Shown: positions 1-8,910, numbered from the stretch's first letter. The stretch: DNA of 30,951 nucleotides from a virus (IMGVR_UViG_2778261530_000010); one strand, 5' to 3'. The notes: generated by a model not told the origin, from the letters alone. Numbers and translations: made by a program.

Positions 1-2526
1 TCAGGGTACCGGTCGTCGTCGCTGGCGAGTGGGCGAAAAGCTGCAAATGAAACAGCACTGCCCGCACCCGGACCTGTTACAGGTCGATCCGTTCGAAGCC
101 ATCATCAACGCGCGTTTTGTACCGTTTCTCCACTCCCCCTGCGCAGCATCCATCTGTTGCCAGTAGCGGCGATTCTCATTCAGTTTCCGGTTCAGACTGT
201 CTGTCAGCGTCTGTTCAGCCTTCCGGTATGCGTCAGAACCATACGAGCCTTTCTGCTTACTGTCCCGTTCAAGTTGCTCCAGCTGTTGCTGGTACTGCTG
301 TCGTAGACGCAACTGCGACTGGTACCGCTGCCGTTGCTGATCGCCCATTCCTGCCATGGCAACGTCCAGATCGTGTTGCTGACGCTGTGCGCGCTCTTCC
401 TCAGCCAGTTGACTGGTCAGCTGAATGGTCTTTTTCTTCAGGTCATTGAGGGCAGTCTGCTTCTGCAGCTCCTGCTGTTTTGCATCCAGCAGCGTCAGTG
501 CCTGAATCAGCTCATCCTTGTGAGCCAGTACACTTTTTTCATCTGCTGTCAGTTTTTTACCGGCTAAATCGCTGATACGCTGCTGAAGGGCCAGAAGCTG
601 TTTATGCGCTTCTGTCATCCTTTCAGTAGCCATGCCCGCTGACTGTCTGGCGGCGGCAATCTGTCCCTCCACCTGCGCCTGTTGCTGGCTGTACTGCAGT
701 AATAGCCGGGTGGCCTCATCATTACGGGTGGCAGGCGTTTTTTTCTTAATGGCTTTTTCGTAACGTTCATTTTCACGCTGTATCGCTGCGTCCCTGACCG
801 CCTGATCGGCGTACTGCATGGCATTAATACGCGCAATTTCACGCTGATGTCGTGCTGCTTCCGTTTCGTTCATCCGGTTCAGCGCGGCATTTTCAGCATT
901 CCGGCGTTTCTGCTGCTCCTGATAATTTCGCTCAGCCTGCTCTTTTGCATCCTGCAAATCCTGCTGGCGTTTTCGCTCTTGCAGCGCATCCAGTTGTTGC
1001 TGATCGTATTCCCCCGTGGTGGACGCCTTAGTCCACGGAAATTTCTTCGCCCGCTGAATTTTTTCCTGCAGCGACGCAATCTGCGCATCAAGGGAATCTT
1101 CCCGACCAATGTTCATAGCCGCATCCCAGAACTGCTTCCACCAGTCAGACAAGGTTTGCAGCGTACTGCCCAGCGCATTGAGGTTATTATCAATATCCGA
1201 CGTACGTTTACCGGTTTCCTCTGCCAGTGCAGACATGGCTATCCGGGCTGCGTCACTGGTGCGCCCCTGCTCTCCGAGCACACGGATCTGTTCAAGCTGG
1301 GTGGCTGTCAGAAAATGCAGTTCATCATCCAGCGCCTTCGCAGCACTGACCGGATCATCCTTCAGCCGTTTAAACTGACTGATGGTGTCACTGACAGACT
1401 GCCCTACCGAGCGTTCCATCTGTGCGGCAGCTTTCGCCACCATACCAATATCGTTACCGTGAAATGCACCGCTCCCCACTACCTGCGCCAGTGACCCCGC
1501 CATGGCATGTTGCGTGATGCCATTACCGGAAAGATTTTTACTGAGCGCCCACAACTGCCCGGCTGTCACACCGGCATAGTGTCCGGTGAGCTCAAGCTGC
1601 CGGTTAAAGGCTTCGCCTTCTTCCTGCCCCTCCATCCAGGCTTTACCCAGACCAATAACCGCAGCAGTGATCCCTCCGATAACTCCCCCCACCGCCAGGC
1701 CTTTCGGAGTCATTAATTTATCAATCCAGCCGGCACGGTTAGCCAGGGTGATCCCGGAGCCACGAAGCGCACCGAAATTACCTCGCGCCAGCTCACCAAT
1801 CATGACCCCCAGCTCCCGACGGGCTGCCGCACTTTTCAGTCCCAGCGAATGTGTGGTGTTTCCGGCTTTCTCCATTTTACGGATGTACACCTCCGCGGCA
1901 CTGCTGCACCCAAGTTGTGCCGCCTTTGCCCGAAGCAGTTCCGTCGTGGTCATTTTCTGGCGACTTGTCTGTTCTTTCAGCTGACGAATAAATGCGGTTT
2001 TCTGGCGGGTGGCCGTTTCCTCTGCCTGTGTCAGAACGCGGGTTTTCGCTGTCACCTCAGAAATCAGGGCCAGATAATCCTGCTGAGCAATCCCGCCACT
2101 GTTTCTGGCCTGTCGGATCTGCTGCTGAATACGCTGTAACTCCTGCAGCCCCGCACTGGCCTGTTTTACGCTGTCGATCTGACGATAAAATGCGGCAGCC
2201 ATCTTATCCTGCGCCGCAGCCAGCGCAGCCGCCTGAACCTGCTCCTCCCGCATCTGACGACTCAGGGCCTCCATCCGCAGGCGCGCCCTTTCCACATCTT
2301 CCGCCAGCGAAACATGCCCCTGCGCATGCTTCACCACGGCCTGAGTCTGTATCACCGTCGCGCTGGCAGCCTGTTTCTGACTTTCCTCAAACCGTTTCAT
2401 ACGGGCTTCGGCCCGCTCCGCCTCCCTTGCTGTACCATTCAGCAGATTTTTTACACGCGGAAGCTGCTCTTTAAAATCGGCGGTATCAATGCTTAAATCA
2501 ATGACAAGGTCAGCAATCTGGTCCAA
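1..2526 (-). CDS. H: Tail tape measure protein (lambda gpH-like), complete 841 aa
   Basis: ORF translation starts MDQIADLVIDLSIDTADFKEQ, matching the lambda gpH N-terminus from memory; long coiled-coil Q/A/R-rich body; lies directly downstream of G/T in lambda gene order; TGA stop is at 1-3. Confidence 0.88.
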   Translation of the reverse strand: MDQIADLVIDLSIDTADFKEQLPRVKNLLNGTAREAERAEARMKRFEESQKQAASATVIQTQAVVKHAQGHVSLAEDVERARLRMEALSRQMREEQVQAAALAAAQDKMAAAFYRQIDSVKQASAGLQELQRIQQQIRQARNSGGIAQQDYLALISEVTAKTRVLTQAEETATRQKTAFIRQLKEQTSRQKMTTTELLRAKAAQLGCSSAAEVYIRKMEKAGNTTHSLGLKSAAARRELGVMIGELARGNFGALRGSGITLANRAGWIDKLMTPKGLAVGGVIGGITAAVIGLGKAWMEGQEEGEAFNRQLELTGHYAGVTAGQLWALSKNLSGNGITQHAMAGSLAQVVGSGAFHGNDIGMVAKAAAQMERSVGQSVSDTISQFKRLKDDPVSAAKALDDELHFLTATQLEQIRVLGEQGRTSDAARIAMSALAEETGKRTSDIDNNLNALGSTLQTLSDWWKQFWDAAMNIGREDSLDAQIASLQEKIQRAKKFPWTKASTTGEYDQQQLDALQERKRQQDLQDAKEQAERNYQEQQKRRNAENAALNRMNETEAARHQREIARINAMQYADQAVRDAAIQRENERYEKAIKKKTPATRNDEATRLLLQYSQQQAQVEGQIAAARQSAGMATERMTEAHKQLLALQQRISDLAGKKLTADEKSVLAHKDELIQALTLLDAKQQELQKQTALNDLKKKTIQLTSQLAEEERAQRQQHDLDVAMAGMGDQQRQRYQSQLRLRQQYQQQLEQLERDSKQKGSYGSDAYRKAEQTLTDSLNRKLNENRRYWQQMDAAQGEWRNGTKRALMMASNGSTCNRSGCGQCCFICSFSPTRQRRRPVP

Positions 2527-2863
2527 ATCTCATTCCTCCCGATATACCTTCCCCCAGATGCATCAGCTCTTCATCCGTGCGTTCAGGGATCACCCTGTCA
2601 TCCGTAACCAGACTGAAATCATCCGCCGGAATACGTTCACCGGACACCATCTGAACCATCAGCGACTTCAGTGTGGAAATCTGTGCATCCAGCCAGATAT
2701 CCCCGAAACTCTGCTTCCGGAAGAAATCCCCCCATTCGCCCAGTTCTGACGCTGACATTTCTGATAACATCCGCCGCCAGTCTGCCCGCCGGAACTCACG
2801 GGCAAGCTGCATCACAAACTGCATCTCCCGCGTCAGGACTTTTCCGGTGTCAGAGGAACCTGT
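2510..2863 (-). CDS. T: Tail assembly chaperone T-frame segment, expected to be expressed only as a G-T fusion by programmed -1 frameshift
   Basis: The -1 frame relative to G is open from 2863 down to the stop at 2510 and overlaps the G 3' end; its position between G and H matches the lambda G/GT arrangement. Confidence 0.7.
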   Translation of the reverse strand, partial: TGSSDTGKVLTREMQFVMQLAREFRRADWRRMLSEMSASELGEWGDFFRKQSFGDIWLDAQISTLKSLMVQMVSGERIPADDFSLVTDDRVIPERTDEELMHLGEGISGGMRFGPDC

Positions 2864-3222
2864 TCACCGTTCTGAACATCACCGGTGGAGACCGGCATAC
2901 CACTCAGGGATAAAACCAGACTGCCCCCGTCGCCAAGCGCGTCATAAGACCAGGTGTTTTTTACATCCTCATTCAGCGCATCCACATCCTGTGACGGGTC
3001 CGTATTCCACATTGACCGGGAAACCAGCCAGGCGTTGATATCCATCCCCATACGCAGAAATTCAATCTGACGTTCAGCCACCGGCATGGCATCATCCAGG
3101 GCGTCAAACTCAGCCGTCCGTTTCTGGACAAACGACAGATATTCCACCCGCTGCAGCCCGGACAGTTCTGTCATAACCACAGACTGATCACCGTAATTAA
3201 ATGTGTCCTGTTTCAGAAACAT
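2833..3222 (-). CDS. G: Tail assembly chaperone gpG
   Basis: Translation MFLKQDTFNYGDQSVVMTELSGLQRVEYL resembles lambda gpG; ATG at 3220-3222 is preceded by GGAGAAGG; the ORF-track start at 3243 is a TTG inside the upstream terminator hairpin. Confidence 0.82.
   Translation of the reverse strand: MFLKQDTFNYGDQSVVMTELSGLQRVEYLSFVQKRTAEFDALDDAMPVAERQIEFLRMGMDINAWLVSRSMWNTDPSQDVDALNEDVKNTWSYDALGDGGSLVLSLSGMPVSTGDVQNGEQVPLTPEKS
2839..2845 (-). other. Candidate -1 ribosomal frameshift site, mRNA heptamer GGAAAAG (A_AAG type), 4 nt upstream of the G stop
   Basis: Minus-strand mRNA reads ACA CCG GAA AAG TCC TGA in the G frame; slipping back one base at GAA-AAG enters the open T frame (GGA AAA GTC ...). 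Confidence 0.5.
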
Positions 3223-3241
3223 AACCTTCTCCGCAAACAAC

Positions 3242-3264
3242 AAAAAAACCCCGGCATACCGGGG
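3242..3264 (-). terminator. Intrinsic terminator-like hairpin immediately after the major tail gene V
   Basis: Minus strand reads CCCCGG-UAUG-CCGGGG followed by UUUUUUU (plus strand AAAAAAA CCCCGGCATACCGGGG). Confidence 0.6.
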
Positions 3265-3282
3265 TACAAACAGACCGTCTGA

Positions 3283-4023
3283 TTAACCACCATTAACGGT
3301 AATACTGGCCACTGCGACCTGTGCGCCACCCGCTGTCATCCCGACAATCGAGGTGCTTCCCGCTTTCACACCTTTCACCGTGGCCACCATGCCACTCAGT
3401 GTAACCGTGGCGATCTCAGGAGAGGATGACGCCACACTCACCGTTTTATCAGATGCATCTTCCGGTACTGTGCTGAATGTCAGCGTCGTCGTTGCCCCCA
3501 CCCTGACACTGGCAGATGCCGGTGCCACCGTCAGACCGGTCACGCTAACAAGCCCGGTGCCTTCCTCTGCCAGATACGGACGTCCCACACCGCTGATTTT
3601 CACAGTGCGGGTCATCACCTCTTTAGAGGTAACAGTTTTCCCCAGCGAGCTCAGCCAGCCACGGAAAACATCAACAGTGCCGTTGGGATATTTGATACGA
3701 AACGCACAGACTTCACCAGAGTCGAACAACTGAACCAGTTTTTTCTGCCCGCTGTCACCCGGACGCCAGGCCAGCGTCGCCGAAGTATCACCGACGGATT
3801 TTTGCCCCTGGGTTGTCGTTTTCCAGTCAGCATTTTCATCATCGAGATAATCGTCATCTTCCGCATCTGCAGTCATTTCGCCCGGCTGTAAATCCTTCAC
3901 CATCGCAAGACGCAGCCAGTCAGTATCTGACAACGGAGCCGCAAAGGCGTCCCCTTTGCCGGTATACATCCAGAACGTCGTCCCCGCGCCCTTCGTTTTT
4001 TCCAGTGGATTCGGTGTTGGCAT
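3283..4023 (-). CDS. V: Major tail tube protein gpV with C-terminal Ig-like (Big_2-type) domain
   Basis: MPTPNPLEKTKGAGTTFWMY... and YPNGTVDVFRGW resemble lambda gpV; ATG at 4021-4023 has AAGGAG 6 nt upstream; length 246 aa as in lambda. Confidence 0.9.
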   Translation of the reverse strand: MPTPNPLEKTKGAGTTFWMYTGKGDAFAAPLSDTDWLRLAMVKDLQPGEMTADAEDDDYLDDENADWKTTTQGQKSVGDTSATLAWRPGDSGQKKLVQLFDSGEVCAFRIKYPNGTVDVFRGWLSSLGKTVTSKEVMTRTVKISGVGRPYLAEEGTGLVSVTGLTVAPASASVRVGATTTLTFSTVPEDASDKTVSVASSSPEIATVTLSGMVATVKGVKAGSTSIVGMTAGGAQVAVASITVNGG

Positions 4024-4037
4024 TACCATCTCCTTGT

Positions 4038-4439
4038 TCAATTTGTATATGTGATCTGATACGTGATTTCCGCCATCGCCCAGGTGGCCATCTCGTTATC
4101 ACGCTGATAGTTAAATCCCTGCGGGATCATGGTATCGATAAGATCTGAAAGTGCCGGAATATCTGTCAGAGCCGGGTAAATAATGTCATCCATCCACGTA
4201 TCCAGTTCTGTATCCGGTGCCTGCGCCCGGATAAAGACCGCGACATGCAGAACCGCCTGCCAGTCAGCCTCATCCACCATTTTTCCGGTGTACTGCGCAT
4301 CGCTCAGCCATACCGCCACGGCGGGCAGTTCCTGCGCATCAATAAAAGCAGGAAGTCCATCGAACAGGACGGTATTCTCCCTGCACGTCGCTTTCAGGCA
4401 CGACAATACGGCCTGACGAATTTGTGTGTGTCGGTTCAT
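4038..4439 (-). CDS. U: Tail tube terminator protein gpU
   Basis: Translation FDGLPAFIDAQELPAVAVWL...DIPALSDLI resembles lambda gpU; ATGA start/stop overlap with Z. Confidence 0.88.
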   Translation of the reverse strand: MNRHTQIRQAVLSCLKATCRENTVLFDGLPAFIDAQELPAVAVWLSDAQYTGKMVDEADWQAVLHVAVFIRAQAPDTELDTWMDDIIYPALTDIPALSDLIDTMIPQGFNYQRDNEMATWAMAEITYQITYTN

Positions 4440-5014
4440 CGGGTCAGATATAACCTCAGTTGTTGTTTCAGGGCATACCCCAGCTGTTTCGGCATCTCGT
4501 TATCAATGACGCTTTTACGGGCATCCTCAAATGCCAGTGTCAGCGGACCGGACAGCGGAATTTTCACCACATCAATGGGGTAACGATTTTTGCCGTCAAT
4601 ACGCCGCATCACATGCCAGCGACCGTTCGCCAGTTGCTGAATAAAGGCATTCCGGAAGAGATATTTTCCCACTTTCAGCACACTGCCACGGTAATGTAAC
4701 CTGCCACCACGCCGGGTCATTCTGACCTGTGCAGCCCCCAGTTTTATGGCGGGCAGGTTGCCGCGATTTACGCGAATACGGGCATACATTTTTCCGTCCG
4801 GGCTGGCTTTAAGTACCCTGACACGCTCACGCACCAGTTTCAGGGGGATCCCCTTCACCTGGTTATCACCAGCCACAGTATTCTGCGCGACCAGCCGTGT
4901 GGCGACAGAGACAACCTTTGCCGCCACACGGTTCATCGCCCATGCGCTGGCCTGTGGCACCATACGGGTATCAAGGATGTCCAGATTACGGATGGCGTTT
5001 TCAAGACCTTTCAT
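4436..5014 (-). CDS. Z: Tail completion protein gpZ
   Basis: MKGLENAIRNLD...NRYPIDVVKIP...LGYALKQQLR resembles lambda gpZ; internal ATG at 5012-5014 chosen by alignment with the lambda N-terminus. Confidence 0.82.
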   Translation of the reverse strand: MKGLENAIRNLDILDTRMVPQASAWAMNRVAAKVVSVATRLVAQNTVAGDNQVKGIPLKLVRERVRVLKASPDGKMYARIRVNRGNLPAIKLGAAQVRMTRRGGRLHYRGSVLKVGKYLFRNAFIQQLANGRWHVMRRIDGKNRYPIDVVKIPLSGPLTLAFEDARKSVIDNEMPKQLGYALKQQLRLYLTR

Positions 5015-5375
5015 AATATCGCCCCGTACTGATATCACCCCGGGAACTGTCACACCGTTGCAGGCGGATATAACAGCATCCCCTGTCGTCCGGAGTAATG
5101 CGATCCACCCGAAAAAGATCCCCACCAACCTCCAGCGTATCCAGACGGCGCAGTCCCGTAATATCTGCTGTTTTCACAAACAAAGACGGTGAAGAATCTT
5201 CAAACCGTACTCCTCCGGCAACGAACGAAATTTTTTCAGGATCATCAAAAACACCCCTGAGTGTTTTTCCTTCAAGCTGACCGGACGTAATTACCGCCGT
5301 AATCCCCATATGACAAAGAATGACCTCGTCAGCCATGGCGACGGCGGCATCAAACGGATTATCGAAATCTGCCAC
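5001..5375 (-). CDS. FII: Head-tail connector protein gpFII
   Basis: MADFDNPFDAAVAMADEVI...GVFDDPE resembles lambda gpFII; the start codon appears to be GTG at 5373-5375 with a GGGGGAAAG upstream. Confidence 0.88.
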   Translation of the reverse strand: MADFDNPFDAAVAMADEVILCHMGITAVITSGQLEGKTLRGVFDDPEKISFVAGGVRFEDSSPSLFVKTADITGLRRLDTLEVGGDLFRVDRITPDDRGCCYIRLQRCDSSRGDISTGRYYERS

Positions 5376-5388
5376 CTTTCCCCCACAT

Positions 5389-5769
5389 TCAACACATTTT
5401 CACGAGGCCACTTTCTGCCATGCTGGCTGCCACCACAGCAGATACACGAAACACTTCTCCCGGACGTACAAATGCCACGGGGTTATCCCGTGTGGCGTGG
5501 AGTGCATTGACATGTAACATCACCACAGCTTTGACCATGACCATATCCACAGAATTTCGGTTCTCACTCTCCCCACGTTCGGATCGTGTTTCGTTTTTTT
5601 GTTGTGGTTCTTCATCATCCTTATACAGGCCGTCTGAACCATCACTTAATTCTTCTTCCCACTCCGCCAGACGTTGTTCAAGATCAGCTTTAGAGCCTGA
5701 AATATCGGCATCGCGCCCGAGTACTGCCGCCAGCTCCTGAAGACGCGCTGTTATTTCTTCTTTTGTCAT
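5389..5769 (-). CDS. FI: Head completion / DNA packaging protein gpFI
   Basis: MTKEEITARLQEL... and C-terminal HATRDNPVAFVRPG..FRVSA resemble lambda gpFI; ATG at 5767-5769 preceded by AGGAGA. Confidence 0.85.
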   Translation of the reverse strand: MTKEEITARLQELAAVLGRDADISGSKADLEQRLAEWEEELSDGSDGLYKDDEEPQQKNETRSERGESENRNSVDMVMVKAVVMLHVNALHATRDNPVAFVRPGEVFRVSAVVAASMAESGLVKMC

Positions 5770-5790
5770 CACATCTCTCCTGTGCGATAA

Positions 5791-5814
5791 AGAAAAAGGC
5801 GGGAATATCCCGCC
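5791..5814 (-). terminator. Intrinsic terminator-like hairpin between major capsid gene E and FI
   Basis: Minus strand reads AGGCGGGA-UAUU-CCCGCC followed by UUUUUCUUU. Confidence 0.5.
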
Positions 5815-5819
5815 TGACC

Positions 5820-6848
5820 TTATTTCACCTGAACCACCACAAATGCGTCCGGATCCGGCAACACCATCAACGGCGCAGACTGCGTCATGGTATATTCGCA
5901 CCCCGGGTCCCCCACCTCTAACCAGTGTTTCGGATAACGAATTGCAGAGGTGATCCCTTCACTCAGCGCCTGGTTATCCTGGATTGCGCCATAACAACGG
6001 ACACCCTCCACCTGAGTGTTTCCAAGAATCAGTGTGCCTTCCGGCAGATAACGCTGCTCATCCCCGTTTTCATCAACATACGTTGTTTTCGCCACCATGA
6101 TGGCCAGATCACCGTAATAACCTTTAAAAGAAACCACGGACCCCAGATCTTTCAGCGCGGTTTCCAGTTCAGATTTTGAGCCACGGCGGGTATCCAGTTT
6201 TTCACGAAACAGTTTAAAACCGTTCAGCATACGCCAGACAGTACCGTCCATAATCGCAATATTGATGGTACCGGAAGCAAAATCGCAGTACGCATCCAGA
6301 TCATGCGTCGGATCAAAGGTGTCAGTATTCTGTTTTGACCATTCGCGTCCCCCTGCCTGCGTAATGTTATTGGCGGCAGAACGTCCAAAATCCACTTCCA
6401 CCGTCTCAAACTGTTCACCGCTCATGGTGTACTTACCCTGCAGAACAGCGCTGACCGCCTGCATTTCTTCCACCTGCACAATCGCCTGTTCTTCCTGTTT
6501 CAGGTTGTCAGTCAGAATACGCAGGCGACGGTAGGCCGGGTCATTAAGACGGGCCGGATCTTCCCCCGGAAGACGCTCCACCGCCTGCTGATAATCCAGC
6601 CGGTGTTTTGGTTTAACATAGCCGGGGCGTAACACGCGGGTTTCACCACCACGACTGCGCAGTACCTTACCTGACACAACCGGAGACACATATGCCGCAA
6701 CCGGTGTTTTTCCGGTGATTTTATCCAGCATCACTTCCTGAGTATGGAAAGTGACCGTACGACGAAAAAACAGCTCCAGAAACAGCGCACGGAATTTCAC
6801 TTTCTGCTCGGTGTAGCCGAGCAACTGACGCGTGGTAAATAACCCCAT
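5820..6848 (-). CDS. E: Major capsid protein gpE
   Basis: Motifs YVSPVVSG, PGYVKPKH, VQVEEMQAVSAVLQGKYTM and SAPLMVLPDPD resemble lambda gpE; ATG at 6846-6848 preceded by AAAGGAAAG. Confidence 0.92.
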   Translation of the reverse strand: MGLFTTRQLLGYTEQKVKFRALFLELFFRRTVTFHTQEVMLDKITGKTPVAAYVSPVVSGKVLRSRGGETRVLRPGYVKPKHRLDYQQAVERLPGEDPARLNDPAYRRLRILTDNLKQEEQAIVQVEEMQAVSAVLQGKYTMSGEQFETVEVDFGRSAANNITQAGGREWSKQNTDTFDPTHDLDAYCDFASGTINIAIMDGTVWRMLNGFKLFREKLDTRRGSKSELETALKDLGSVVSFKGYYGDLAIMVAKTTYVDENGDEQRYLPEGTLILGNTQVEGVRCYGAIQDNQALSEGITSAIRYPKHWLEVGDPGCEYTMTQSAPLMVLPDPDAFVVVQVK

Positions 6849-6861
6849 AATTGACTTTCCT

Positions 6862-6899
6862 TTAAAAACACAAACGGGCCGCATCACGACCCGTTTTTT
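6862..6899. terminator. Bidirectional terminator-like hairpin between decoration gene D and capsid gene E
   Basis: Plus strand ACGGGCCGCATCACGACCCGT is flanked by an A-run on the left and TTTTTT on the right; on the minus strand the stem is followed by UUGUGUUUUU. Confidence 0.45.
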
Positions 6900-6917
6900 C
6901 AGTTAATCACTTCACCA

Positions 6918-7253
6918 TCAGGCGTGGCTGATGGCACTTCCCACAAACGCGTTGGCTTTTTTCACCGCATCCACCGAATCCGGCCAGACCAGCGATTCGG
7001 TGGCAAACGTACCGCTTTTGTAGTACGTCAGTGTGGGCTCGGTCCCGGCCAGCGCCAGTACCAGCACCCCCACAGCCGTTCCGGCTTTCTGACCATCCCA
7101 TGCCACCAGTTTTCCGCTGGCGTCATCCAGCATCAGTGGCGTCAGTGAAGGCGTGGCAACACTGATACCACTGGTACCTGTTGCGGTATATACCGGATCG
7201 CTTCCGGCAAAAATGCGCCCGTCCGCGCGCTTTTCTGTGGTGGTTTTAATCAT
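6918..7253 (-). CDS. D: Head decoration protein gpD
   Basis: TPLMLDDASGKLVAWDG and YYKSGTF resemble lambda gpD; ATG at 7251-7253 preceded by AGGAGA. Confidence 0.9.
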   Translation of the reverse strand: MIKTTTEKRADGRIFAGSDPVYTATGTSGISVATPSLTPLMLDDASGKLVAWDGQKAGTAVGVLVLALAGTEPTLTYYKSGTFATESLVWPDSVDAVKKANAFVGSAISHA

Positions 7254-7293
7254 TTTCTCAGTCTCCTGATTTATCTGAATCACGGATCCCCGC

Positions 7294-8910
7294 TTACGGC
7301 ATACTCATCAGCAGTTCTTCTTCCCCGTTCCCGGCAGTTCCGCCACCGGAAACGGCACTGGCGGCATGCTGTGCCATGAAGCGCTCAAAAAGTGTTACCT
7401 GTGACGGTTGCGATACTGATGGCGCAGCTGCCAGCAGCGTTTTCGCCTGCTCCACTGTCATTCCAGGTTGTTCAGCCAGCGCCTGTGCCAGTTTTTCGCG
7501 TCCTTTTGCTTCCGGCAACGCAATAATTTGATCGCCGGTACTTGCCGTACCGGTTGCCGGTGCCGCTACCAGTAGCATTTTCGCCTGTTCCACCGTCATT
7601 CCCGGCTGTTCAGCCAGCGCCTGTGCGAGTTGTTCACGCCCTTTTGCTTCCGGAAGTGCCATAATCTGCTCGCCGGTACTTGCCGCACCGGAAACCGGTG
7701 CCGCTGCCAGTAACGTTTTCGCCTGCTCCACCGTCATTCCCGGCTGTTCAGCCAGCGTCCGTGCCAGTTGTTCACGCCCTTTTGCTTCCAGAAGTGCCAT
7801 AATCTGATCGCCTGTGCTGTCAGTACCGGCAACCGGTGCTGCCGCCAGTAATGTTTTTGCCTGCTCAACTGACATTCCCTGCTGACCTGCCAGCATCTGC
7901 GCCAGTTTTTCGCGTCCTTTCGCCTCCTGACAATTCAGGATCCCCATCACGCGCTGATTTTCCCGGGACACCGCTTCAGCAACGGTGAGATTTTTTGTTG
8001 TCATCGTATTCTCCTGTGTAACAGAGTCGTTCAGAGCAGAAACCATTACATCAACGGCATCTGCAGCATTAATCAGTTGATCAGCCAGGCCTGTATCAAT
8101 GCCTGCCTGACCGTCATAAACGGCAGCCTCGGTATTCATCACCGCCTCTGAACTCAGCCCCGTATAAAGCGCCATCTTGTCGACAAACATCCGGCGGGCC
8201 TCATCAATACGGCGCTGAAAATCCGCACGCACACCTGTCGGCAACGCCTGAATACTGTTGCCGTCAACCTTGTGCTGCCCGGAGTAAATCAGCGTGATAT
8301 CCACGCCTTCCTGTGCCAGTTGTTTCTCGTAACTGGTGTGCGCCATCATCACACCAATCGAACCAATTTTTGCCGTCTGCGTGACCAGCCGACGCGTACA
8401 GGCCGCCGCCAGCAACATGGCGGCTGAACAGGCCATGTCATTACACAGCGCCCACACGGGCTTCTGTTCCCGCAGACGGTAAATCATGTCAGCACAGTCA
8501 AACGCCCCGGCAGCCTGACCACCCGGACTGTCGATATCCAGTAAAATGCCGCGTACATCCGGGTCGTTCACCGCTGACTTAAGACGGGCAGTCAGACCGT
8601 CATAACCGGTCATACCGGAATATGGCCGCAGGGTACCCATTTTATGTACCAACGTGCCGCTCACCGGCAGAATGGCAATACCATTTTTCACCTGGTAACT
8701 CTTTACCGGACGCGGACCACCAGTCATATAATCGGTAACCGCCAGCTGCATACCATCGGCATCAAGCTGAACGGCCTGCTGCGGAACGGCAAGGCTGCCC
8801 GCCCCCATCTCCTTACCCAGTGCGCAAAAGAAAACCCGCGCATAGGCGGGTTCCAGTAAAAGCGGCTCATTAAATGCCATCGCGGCAATATGTGATAAAT
8901 TACAGCGCAT
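7294..8910 (-). CDS. C: Prohead protease/scaffold gpC (S49/ClpP-like peptidase) with a C-terminal Nu3-like scaffold region containing four tandem repeats
   Basis: AAMAFNEPLLLEPAYARVFFCAL, PVSGTL, PYSGMTGYDG and ALCNDMACSAA resemble lambda gpC; the start overlaps the portal stop. Confidence 0.9.
   Translation of the reverse strand: MRCNLSHIAAMAFNEPLLLEPAYARVFFCALGKEMGAGSLAVPQQAVQLDADGMQLAVTDYMTGGPRPVKSYQVKNGIAILPVSGTLVHKMGTLRPYSGMTGYDGLTARLKSAVNDPDVRGILLDIDSPGGQAAGAFDCADMIYRLREQKPVWALCNDMACSAAMLLAAACTRRLVTQTAKIGSIGVMMAHTSYEKQLAQEGVDITLIYSGQHKVDGNSIQALPTGVRADFQRRIDEARRMFVDKMALYTGLSSEAVMNTEAAVYDGQAGIDTGLADQLINAADAVDVMVSALNDSVTQENTMTTKNLTVAEAVSRENQRVMGILNCQEAKGREKLAQMLAGQQGMSVEQAKTLLAAAPVAGTDSTGDQIMALLEAKGREQLARTLAEQPGMTVEQAKTLLAAAPVSGAASTGEQIMALPEAKGREQLAQALAEQPGMTVEQAKMLLVAAPATGTASTGDQIIALPEAKGREKLAQALAEQPGMTVEQAKTLLAAAPSVSQPSQVTLFERFMAQHAASAVSGGGTAGNGEEELLMSMP
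7437..7930 (-). repeat. Four tandem in-frame coding repeats of about 123 bp (41 aa) inside gpC/Nu3
   Basis: The DNA unit GTTTTCGCCTGCTCCACCGTCATTCCCGGCTGTTCAGCCAGCG... recurs four times; the protein shows four copies of EAKGRE(K/Q)LAQ.LAEQPGMTVEQAKTLLAAAP....TGDQI.AL. Confidence 0.85.

Follow-up and report, generated by a model that had tools for sequence, protein, structure and literature searches.

The late operon of the lambda-like Escherichia coli prophage in IMGVR_UViG_2778261530_000010 carries three hairpins of the intrinsic-terminator type, one directly after each of the genes D (head decoration), E (major capsid) and V (major tail tube). We name them D/E, E/FI and V/G, after the gene junctions that they occupy. 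The window analysed here is the whole stretch of 30,951 nucleotides, and its late genes lie on the minus strand. The reading that we favour, and to which we would give about an even chance, is that selection maintains the three hairpins at the 3′ ends of D, E and V, where they would protect the messages and stop unmodified RNA polymerase in an operon that is antiterminated by Q. The products of D, E and V are the three most abundant proteins in lambda-type virions, with about 400, 415 and 190 copies, respectively. A first-pass annotation of the window had placed hairpins with U-tracts directly after these genes, and all three were found where it had put them, on the coding (minus) strand of the late operon. 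The genes and signals at the three junctions are the following.

6918-7283, minus strand: D, head decoration gene (Pfam PF02924, E-value 8.6e-22; start GTG at 7283 or ATG at 7253)
6894-6899, minus strand: A-run (AAAAAA) just upstream of the D/E hairpin, the last three A being its outer A-U pairs
6861-6871, minus strand: U-rich tail of the D/E hairpin, GUGUUUUUAAA, which runs into the E ribosome-binding site
6855-6862, minus strand: E ribosome-binding site, AAGGAAAG; E ATG at 6848-6846
5820-6848, minus strand: E, major capsid gene (Pfam PF03864, E-value 4.9e-65)
5788-5796, minus strand: U-rich tail of the E/FI hairpin, UUUUCUUUA, core tail UUUUCUUU
5775-5780, minus strand: FI ribosome-binding site, GGAGAG; FI ATG at 5769-5767
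5389-5769, minus strand: FI (Pfam PF14000)
3283-4023, minus strand: V, major tail tube gene (Pfam PF16461, E-value 2.6e-66, and Big_2)
3236-3247, minus strand: U-rich tail of the V/G hairpin, UUUUUUGUUGUU, including UUUUUUG
3225-3232, minus strand: G ribosome-binding site, GGAGAAGG; G ATG at 3222-3220
2833-3222, minus strand: G (Pfam PF06894)

The D/E stem (6896-6872, minus strand) reads AAACGGGUCGU-GAU-GCGGCCCGUUU and is followed by the tail GUGUUUUU, a U-run broken by two G. It begins 21 nt past the D stop codon and consists of 11 bp (6 G-C, 2 G.U and 3 A-U) with a 3-nt loop. The E/FI stem (5815-5797, minus strand; AGGCGGGA-UAU-UCCCGCCU, then the tail UUUUCUUUA) has 8 bp, six of them G-C, and a 3-nt loop, and it starts 4 nt past the E stop codon (TAA 5822-5820). 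For V/G the stem (3265-3248, minus strand) is ACCCCGG-UAUG-CCGGGGU with the tail UUUUUUGUUG; its 7 bp, again with six G-C pairs, close a 4-nt loop and begin 17 nt past the V stop codon (TAA 3285-3283). Counted over the 10 nt that follow the G-C core, there are 8 T at D/E, 8 at E/FI and 9 at V/G. All three hairpins are in sense orientation, lie outside coding sequence and stand 23-27 nt ahead of the next ATG. RNA folding, one of the checks proposed with the first-pass annotation, gave −15.5, −13.8 and −12.8 kcal/mol for the D/E, E/FI and V/G hairpins alone, and the whole spacers reached z-scores of −2.4 to −3.0 against dinucleotide shuffles. The three elements are thereby predicted intrinsic terminators that pass all of the sequence tests for this class.

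The D/E element has an additional property, described already in the first-pass annotation, of A/U runs on both sides, AAAAAA upstream and the U-rich tail downstream. The plus strand likewise specifies a hairpin, a weaker one (−10.4 kcal/mol) with UUUUUU behind it, which gives the element the shape of a bidirectional terminator. The A-rich 5′ flank was present in only 17 of 48 variants of the D-E hairpin and is therefore lineage-specific. At the gene itself, we observed that the D frame ends in three in-frame stops within 18 nt (6903-6920), namely TGA 6920-6918, TGA 6914-6912 and TAA 6905-6903; for its start, PGAP picks the ATG in the identical copy of the prophage of bovine strain NS-NP030.

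Elements of this build are rare in the late region. A strict scan of the minus strand of 1-15500, with minima of 7 bp, 6 G-C pairs and 5 T in 8, returned exactly three sites, and these are D/E, E/FI and V/G. The same scan on 300 dinucleotide shuffles gave a mean of 0.073 sites, and no shuffle contained three or more. With a looser terminator scan there was no overall excess (21 sites vs. 16.1 ± 3.7 in shuffles), and the same three elements ranked top; the significance of the three sites thus comes from the strict scan and not from the looser one.

The hairpins are found in the longest spacers from Nu1 to H, which measure 69 nt (D-E), 50 nt (E-FI) and 60 nt (V-G). The remaining junctions of this segment overlap or have at most 14 nt, with the sole exception of C-D, which has 10 nt or 40 nt according to which D start is used. 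Median spacers in related loci are 67, 50 and 60 nt for D-E, E-FI and V-G, and −4 to 11 nt for FI-FII, FII-Z, Z-U and U-V. Positions 3000-7300 of the window are 100% identical to the NS-NP030 prophage (L309, NZ_AP024126), and related sequence is present in 2,430 E. coli records. Between Nu1 and J of the complete NS-NP030 prophage, the head-tail module of which is identical to that of the window, strong terminator-like sites occur at junctions only after D, E, V and J. A weaker one falls within the portal gene, and further sites are located after the endolysin gene and on the flanks of lom. No comparable junction hairpin was observed after any low-copy gene from Nu1 to I. The hairpins sit at the 3′ ends of the more abundant cistrons, as an mRNA-stabilising hairpin should. 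The hairpin that follows the endolysin gene of the NS-NP030 prophage (27094-27115, minus strand; AAAGGUCGC-UGUG-GCGGCCUUU) is closely similar to the D-E hairpin of a Buttiauxella prophage (L171; AAAGGUCGCC-AGGUG-CGGCCUUU).

Conservation in related phages, also proposed as a check on the first-pass annotation, was followed in 80 loci around E homologues and 160 loci around V homologues from IMG/VR, to which we added 59 E-family loci from species-representative genomes; many of the latter are plain lambda DNA contamination and collapse on de-duplication. Hairpins and their U-tracts were scored with a core-anchored measure, the number of T in the 10 nt after the G-C core. At D-E a hairpin was present in 48 of 53 distinct spacers, and all 48 had at least 5 T. 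E-FI spacers carried a hairpin in at least 43 of 45 distinct cases, with at least 6 T in 33 and 4 or fewer T in 6; in the two spacers that fail the rule for a contiguous stem a hairpin is visible by eye. For V-G the count was 15 of 20 distinct spacers, all 15 with at least 5 T and 14 with at least 6, and the five spacers devoid of a hairpin are of the lambda type, with 15 nt between the genes. As a background, random 60-nt windows of the same loci contained a hairpin in 17% of cases and a hairpin with at least 6 T in 2.4%. The hairpins after D and E recur in Escherichia, Kluyvera, Enterobacter, Citrobacter, Klebsiella, Trabulsiella, Serratia, Buttiauxella, Erwinia and one Aeromonadaceae genome. 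In Methylorubrum (L216) there is a hairpin after an E homologue of 29% identity, and it lacks a U-tract.

Among the added loci, short contigs in unrelated assemblies (L175-L190, L205-L213, L218, L221 and L222), for example in Neobacillus, Kitasatospora, Bradyrhizobium, Paenibacillus, Prevotella and Akkermansia, match at ~59% identity, which is the level of lambda E. Where flanks are present, the D-E and E-FI spacers of such contigs collapse onto those of lambda on de-duplication, and the contigs look like lambda control-DNA contamination.

Comparison of the D-E spacers revealed that base pairing itself is maintained. When 27 diverse D-E spacers were aligned with MAFFT, blind to structure, the hairpins fell in register and 93.8% of cells paired; slid controls paired at 28-60%. 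Double changes were found at 6 of the 9 pairs, amounting to 33 double-change cells vs. 10.2 ± 3.4 in shuffled alignments, a number that none of 500 shuffles reached. One pair is U.G in 9 of the 27 sequences, and, owing to G.U pairs, the D/E stem of the window is more stable on the coding strand (−15.5 kcal/mol) than on the other strand (−10.4 kcal/mol). Because frequent G.U pairs strengthen the coding-strand stem, the selected object is the sense RNA and not a DNA palindrome. A DNA cruciform and an antisense RNA were both considered as the selected object and rejected, as the G.U pairs favour an RNA of the sense strand.

The other two junctions are less informative. Aligned all together, the E-FI spacers gave no consensus structure, their hairpins being out of register between lineages; the spacers were aligned lineage by lineage instead. 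In lambda-type E-FI hairpins the closing pair changed from U-A to C-G three times, and in another lineage GGGAGC/GCUCCC is replaced by GGGGGC/GCCCCC. The evidence for covariation at E-FI is limited, with one covarying pair per lineage. The V-G cores comprise only 6 distinct sequences and offer little variation for covariation. The comparison of the related loci as a whole shows that the hairpins are selected RNA structures. No Rfam family reached its gathering score in the window, and when 3100-7000 was searched permissively only one irrelevant snoRNA model (E-value 0.5) came up. One E/FI hairpin (L042) has GGCGGGAAUAUCCCGCC in place of GGCGGGAUAUUCCCGCC, the exact reverse complement, as if the palindrome had been flipped. 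At the V-G junction of L144 a mosaic breakpoint lies in the hairpin loop, about 29 nt past the V stop, with the 5′ arm kept and unrelated sequence after it, and in L153 the sequence switches just past the G start codon; these two cases hint that V-G spacers serve as recombination joints.

The window encodes its own late antiterminator and a terminator of the tR′ kind.

19156-19503, minus strand: Q, late antiterminator gene (Pfam PF06530, E-value 6.7e-46)
19056-19080, minus strand: tR′-like intrinsic terminator just downstream of Q, 10-bp stem and UUUUUUAUG

The tR′-like terminator, AAACCCGCCG-CCACC-UGGCGGGUUU followed by UUUUAUG, lies 76 nt past the Q stop codon and is likely the tR′ equivalent of this prophage. 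It has the same build as the D/E, E/FI and V/G hairpins and provides a comparator for them inside the window. Q and then this strong terminator lie upstream of, and co-oriented with, the holin gene, the endolysin gene and the Nu1-to-H segment, all on the minus strand, which is the layout of a Q-type late operon. The holin and the GH108 endolysin genes precede the virion genes. Of the latter, FII, Z, U and T were likewise identified with Pfam on the minus strand; Nu1 (terminase small subunit, 12569-13135), A, W, B, the protease gene C and the tape measure gene H were assigned from lambda gene order, with which the NS-NP030 annotation agrees. In lambdoid phages, Q-modified polymerase passes tR′ into the late genes (PMC7547250). 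Since the window encodes both Q and a tR′-like terminator, its late RNA polymerase is, by analogy, expected to be terminator-resistant and to read mostly through.

Directly downstream of Q and the tR′-like terminator, in the place that Stx genes occupy in Stx phages, lies a pertussis-like AB5 toxin pair of the ArtAB type (17638-18985, minus strand). Its A subunit (18197-18985) matches ArtA of PDB 4z9c (E-value 1.7e-126), and its B subunit (17638-18063) matches ArtB of 5whu (E-value 1.1e-65) and 4z9c_B (E-value 1.9e-52). Between the lysis genes and Nu1 we found an IS3-family element (13801-14972, minus strand), whose orfA contains HTH_Tnp_1 and whose orfB contains an rve integrase core. The NS-NP030 prophage, which has the same head-tail module, lacks this element, and the insertion may be polar on virion gene expression. 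Compared with 13000-30951 of the window, the NS-NP030 prophage has a different Q, lysis cassette and early region, and carries neither ArtAB nor the insertion sequence, a clear case of head-tail module exchange.

Under the favoured reading, in lytic growth Q-modified polymerase would pass the three hairpins as it passes the tR′-like terminator and would produce one long late transcript. The hairpins would fold behind the polymerase and, after cleavage further downstream, block 3′-to-5′ exonucleases; a minority of transcripts possibly end at the hairpins themselves. Segments of D, E and V would then outlast the low-copy segments that follow them, which would add a modest boost on top of translational control. 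Polymerase that lacks the Q modification, in the prophage state or from internal or read-in starts, would instead terminate at the hairpins. The sequence shows how the hairpins are built, where and on which strand they lie, that they are conserved with compensatory changes, and that Q and a tR′-like terminator accompany them; passage of the polymerase, protection from exonucleases and any influence on protein ratios are what we infer. Precedents exist: in selective RNA processing and stabilisation, stem-loops at the 3′ ends of highly expressed cistrons determine subunit ratios (PMC4423207), and terminators are mentioned as having been investigated for enhancing the stability of upstream mRNA (PMC11696848).

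Several observations weigh against this reading. The hairpins are dispensable in places. With lambda V as a query only lambda copies of 98-100% identity were returned, and five diverse phage records were therefore inspected by hand. The V-G spacer has 4-16 nt in lambda, phi80, PhiR12_2_star, an Stx2a phage and Vibrio phage K279, and the 10-16 nt found in lambda, phi80 and Stx phages are too short for a hairpin; in Providencia phage PSTCR8lys this junction carries an unrelated hairpin with a U-tract. The V hairpin can thus be dispensed with in lambda, phi80 and Stx phages, and prophages of Providencia alcalifaciens lack the D hairpin. For these reasons the hairpins are common and selected, yet not essential, and the proposal of the first-pass annotation that a hairpin follows each high-copy gene applies to the window but does not extend to all relatives.

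The U-tract raises a further difficulty. To block an exonuclease, a hairpin requires no U-tract. The strong conservation of the U-tract after D and V speaks for selection on termination itself as well, or on another function that requires U. Of the 43 variants of the hairpin after E, 6 (L056 and L171 among them) have lost the U-tract, as has Methylorubrum L216, so stem and U-tract are not equally constrained at every site. Finally, the contribution of the hairpins to protein ratios is probably small, because lambda late-protein ratios are set mainly by translation initiation: Sampson et al. (PNAS, 1988) reportedly attributed the large differences in late-protein yield mainly to this step.

The conserved U-tract would also fit hairpins that act as leaky terminators. 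A fixed fraction of late polymerases would stop at each of them, leaving progressively fewer transcripts downstream of D, E and V and lowering the output of the low-copy genes. The elements possess full terminator anatomy with a U-tract conserved far above background, a feature that termination needs and an exonuclease block does not, and weak terminators with substantial read-through balance expression in other phages including T7 (PMC9163698). Against this, the operon is driven by the Q antiterminator, which overrides terminators (PMC7547250). The E hairpin begins 4 nt past the stop codon, where a terminating ribosome would be expected to cover the 5′ arm and hinder folding. Moreover, three modest steps cannot yield the gaps of 30-fold to more than 100-fold between E, D and V and their neighbours, and the D terminator precedes E, whose product is the most abundant. 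We consider that this model is rather unlikely to be the correct one, and that stepping down of late transcription is less likely than protection of 3′ ends. The suggestion of the first-pass annotation that the hairpins are 'partial terminators or RNA-stabilising elements' thus names a reasonable class, given their terminator features, siting and conservation, but its proposal that they set stoichiometry goes beyond what sequence can support, and its step-down component is doubtful in view of Q and the tR′-like terminator.

Termination could also matter only in the lysogen or for stray polymerases. As insulators, the hairpins would stop transcription that is not antiterminated, whether it runs past tR′, starts internally or enters from outside, and they would have no role in lytic dosage. 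Internal terminators combined with processive antitermination do suppress spurious transcription in long operons (PMC8955417), and this role would explain the terminator anatomy and the conserved U-tract; the D/E element could also stop antisense transcription. However, it leaves unexplained why hairpins are sited after exactly three high-copy genes and at none of the ~ten other Nu1-to-J junctions. A terminator that follows D, E or V does not keep that gene from being expressed, and the antisense-terminator shape is limited to one lineage (the 17 of 48 variants noted above). We regard a purely insulating function as unlikely.

The closeness of the hairpins to the next gene would fit devices that act on translation, in which the hairpin and U-tail influence the ribosome-binding site 10-15 nt downstream, either as a U-rich enhancer for E or by pairing with the Shine-Dalgarno (SD) sequence and throttling FI and G. 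In most lineages the next ATG stays within 18-29 nt of the G-C core. The minimum-energy folds of the V/G (3225-3248) and E/FI (5775-5797) spacers include predicted pairs between U-tract and SD sequence, and a second helix of this kind has three double-change pairs in alignment A6. Nevertheless, U-runs pair with any purine-rich SD sequence through weak A-U and G.U pairs, so that the pairing is possibly an unavoidable by-product; neither the E/FI centroid nor the D/E fold contains it, and the conserved GC-rich stem is left unexplained. We see little prospect for this model. It can be joined to 3′-end protection in a coupled module, in which the hairpin would stabilise the upstream high-copy cistron while the U-tract pairs with the downstream SD sequence and throttles FI and G, so that the ratio would be set from both sides, independently of termination; we rate its prospects as equally slim. 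Palindromes that arose by chance, or scars left by recombination where modules meet, neither of them functional as RNA, would agree with the L144 breakpoint inside the V/G loop and with hairpin sequence types that vary by lineage and are not all alignable, but are hardly credible given that none of 300 shuffles held three or more strict sites, that compensatory changes and sense-strand G.U pairs indicate selection on RNA pairing, and that hairpins of unrelated sequence recur at the same junctions in distant taxa.

Both the kind of element and its layout are already known: they have been visible in lambda since it was sequenced and are annotated in HK97, mEp460 and Ayreon. Lambda has hairpins of the same build and orientation at the same D-E and E-FI junctions of a Q-dependent late operon, which are unannotated in its record. 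Its D-E hairpin (about 6098-6127; AAAGGCCGC-CUGU-GCGGCUUUUUUU) aligns with that of the window and shares the GCGGC(C) 3′ arm and the U-tract, whereas its E-FI hairpin (7163-7180; AUGGCCC-UUCG-GGGCCAU) is not alignable with the E/FI hairpin of the window. Unlike the window, lambda has 15 nt between V and G and no third hairpin.

A homologous element is found at the V-G junction of mEp460 (JQ182728, annotated as 'rho-independent terminator') and Ayreon (MF807953, 'terminator'), the V proteins of which are 86-88% identical to that of the window. These elements share with V/G the CCCCGG/CCGGGG core, a 4-nt loop and the U-tract, and differ in the closing pair (G-C vs. A-U in the window) and the loop (UUAU vs. 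UAUG). In both phages a terminator is also annotated after the capsid-fusion gene, their head module being of the fused protease/scaffold/capsid type, which has no separate D and E. HK97 (NC_002167), with a lambdoid late operon, carries a 'putative terminator' directly after the major head gene 5 (5192-5213) and after the major tail gene (7443-7462); the stem-loops fold at −21.1 and −15.6 kcal/mol, respectively. The assignment comes from the record annotation and is putative. In contrast to the window, the genes (an HK97-type head, with no D or E) and the hairpin sequences are unrelated, the tail-gene hairpin lacks a U-tract, and terminators are annotated at other junctions too.

More distant parallels exist. 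In T7, the incompletely efficient terminator T-phi stands right after the major capsid gene 10, the capsid message is the most abundant one, and downstream genes rely on read-through; unlike the elements of the window, T-phi acts on T7 RNA polymerase, with no antiterminator, and its function was shown experimentally. The cip-cel cellulosome operon (PMC4423207) also serves a multi-subunit assembly and has intergenic stem-loops at the 3′ ends of its most expressed cistrons. There, processing sites and transcript ratios were measured; the cip-cel stem-loops are not described as terminators, and host and RNases differ. Conjugation operons (PMC8955417) resemble the window in being long and in having several internal intrinsic terminators, which are bypassed by polymerase modified at the start of the operon, but they belong to a Gram-positive plasmid, use another antitermination mechanism and have terminators that are not tied to high-copy genes. 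Full-text literature searches found no paper on the D-E, E-FI or V-G hairpins, and the phage genome papers that were consulted make no mention of them.

The finding is an ordinary one and opens no new question. For annotation it means that the D-E, E-FI and V-G spacers are to be treated as regulatory and not as missed genes, and it may be of use in the engineering of lambda-type display or packaging systems. With its clear covariation, the D-E hairpin family provides a clean, testable set. If the hairpins do tune message levels, they would be an example from nature of terminators retained within an operon under antitermination, and would account for a small part of how one transcript yields hundreds of copies of three proteins and few of their neighbours.

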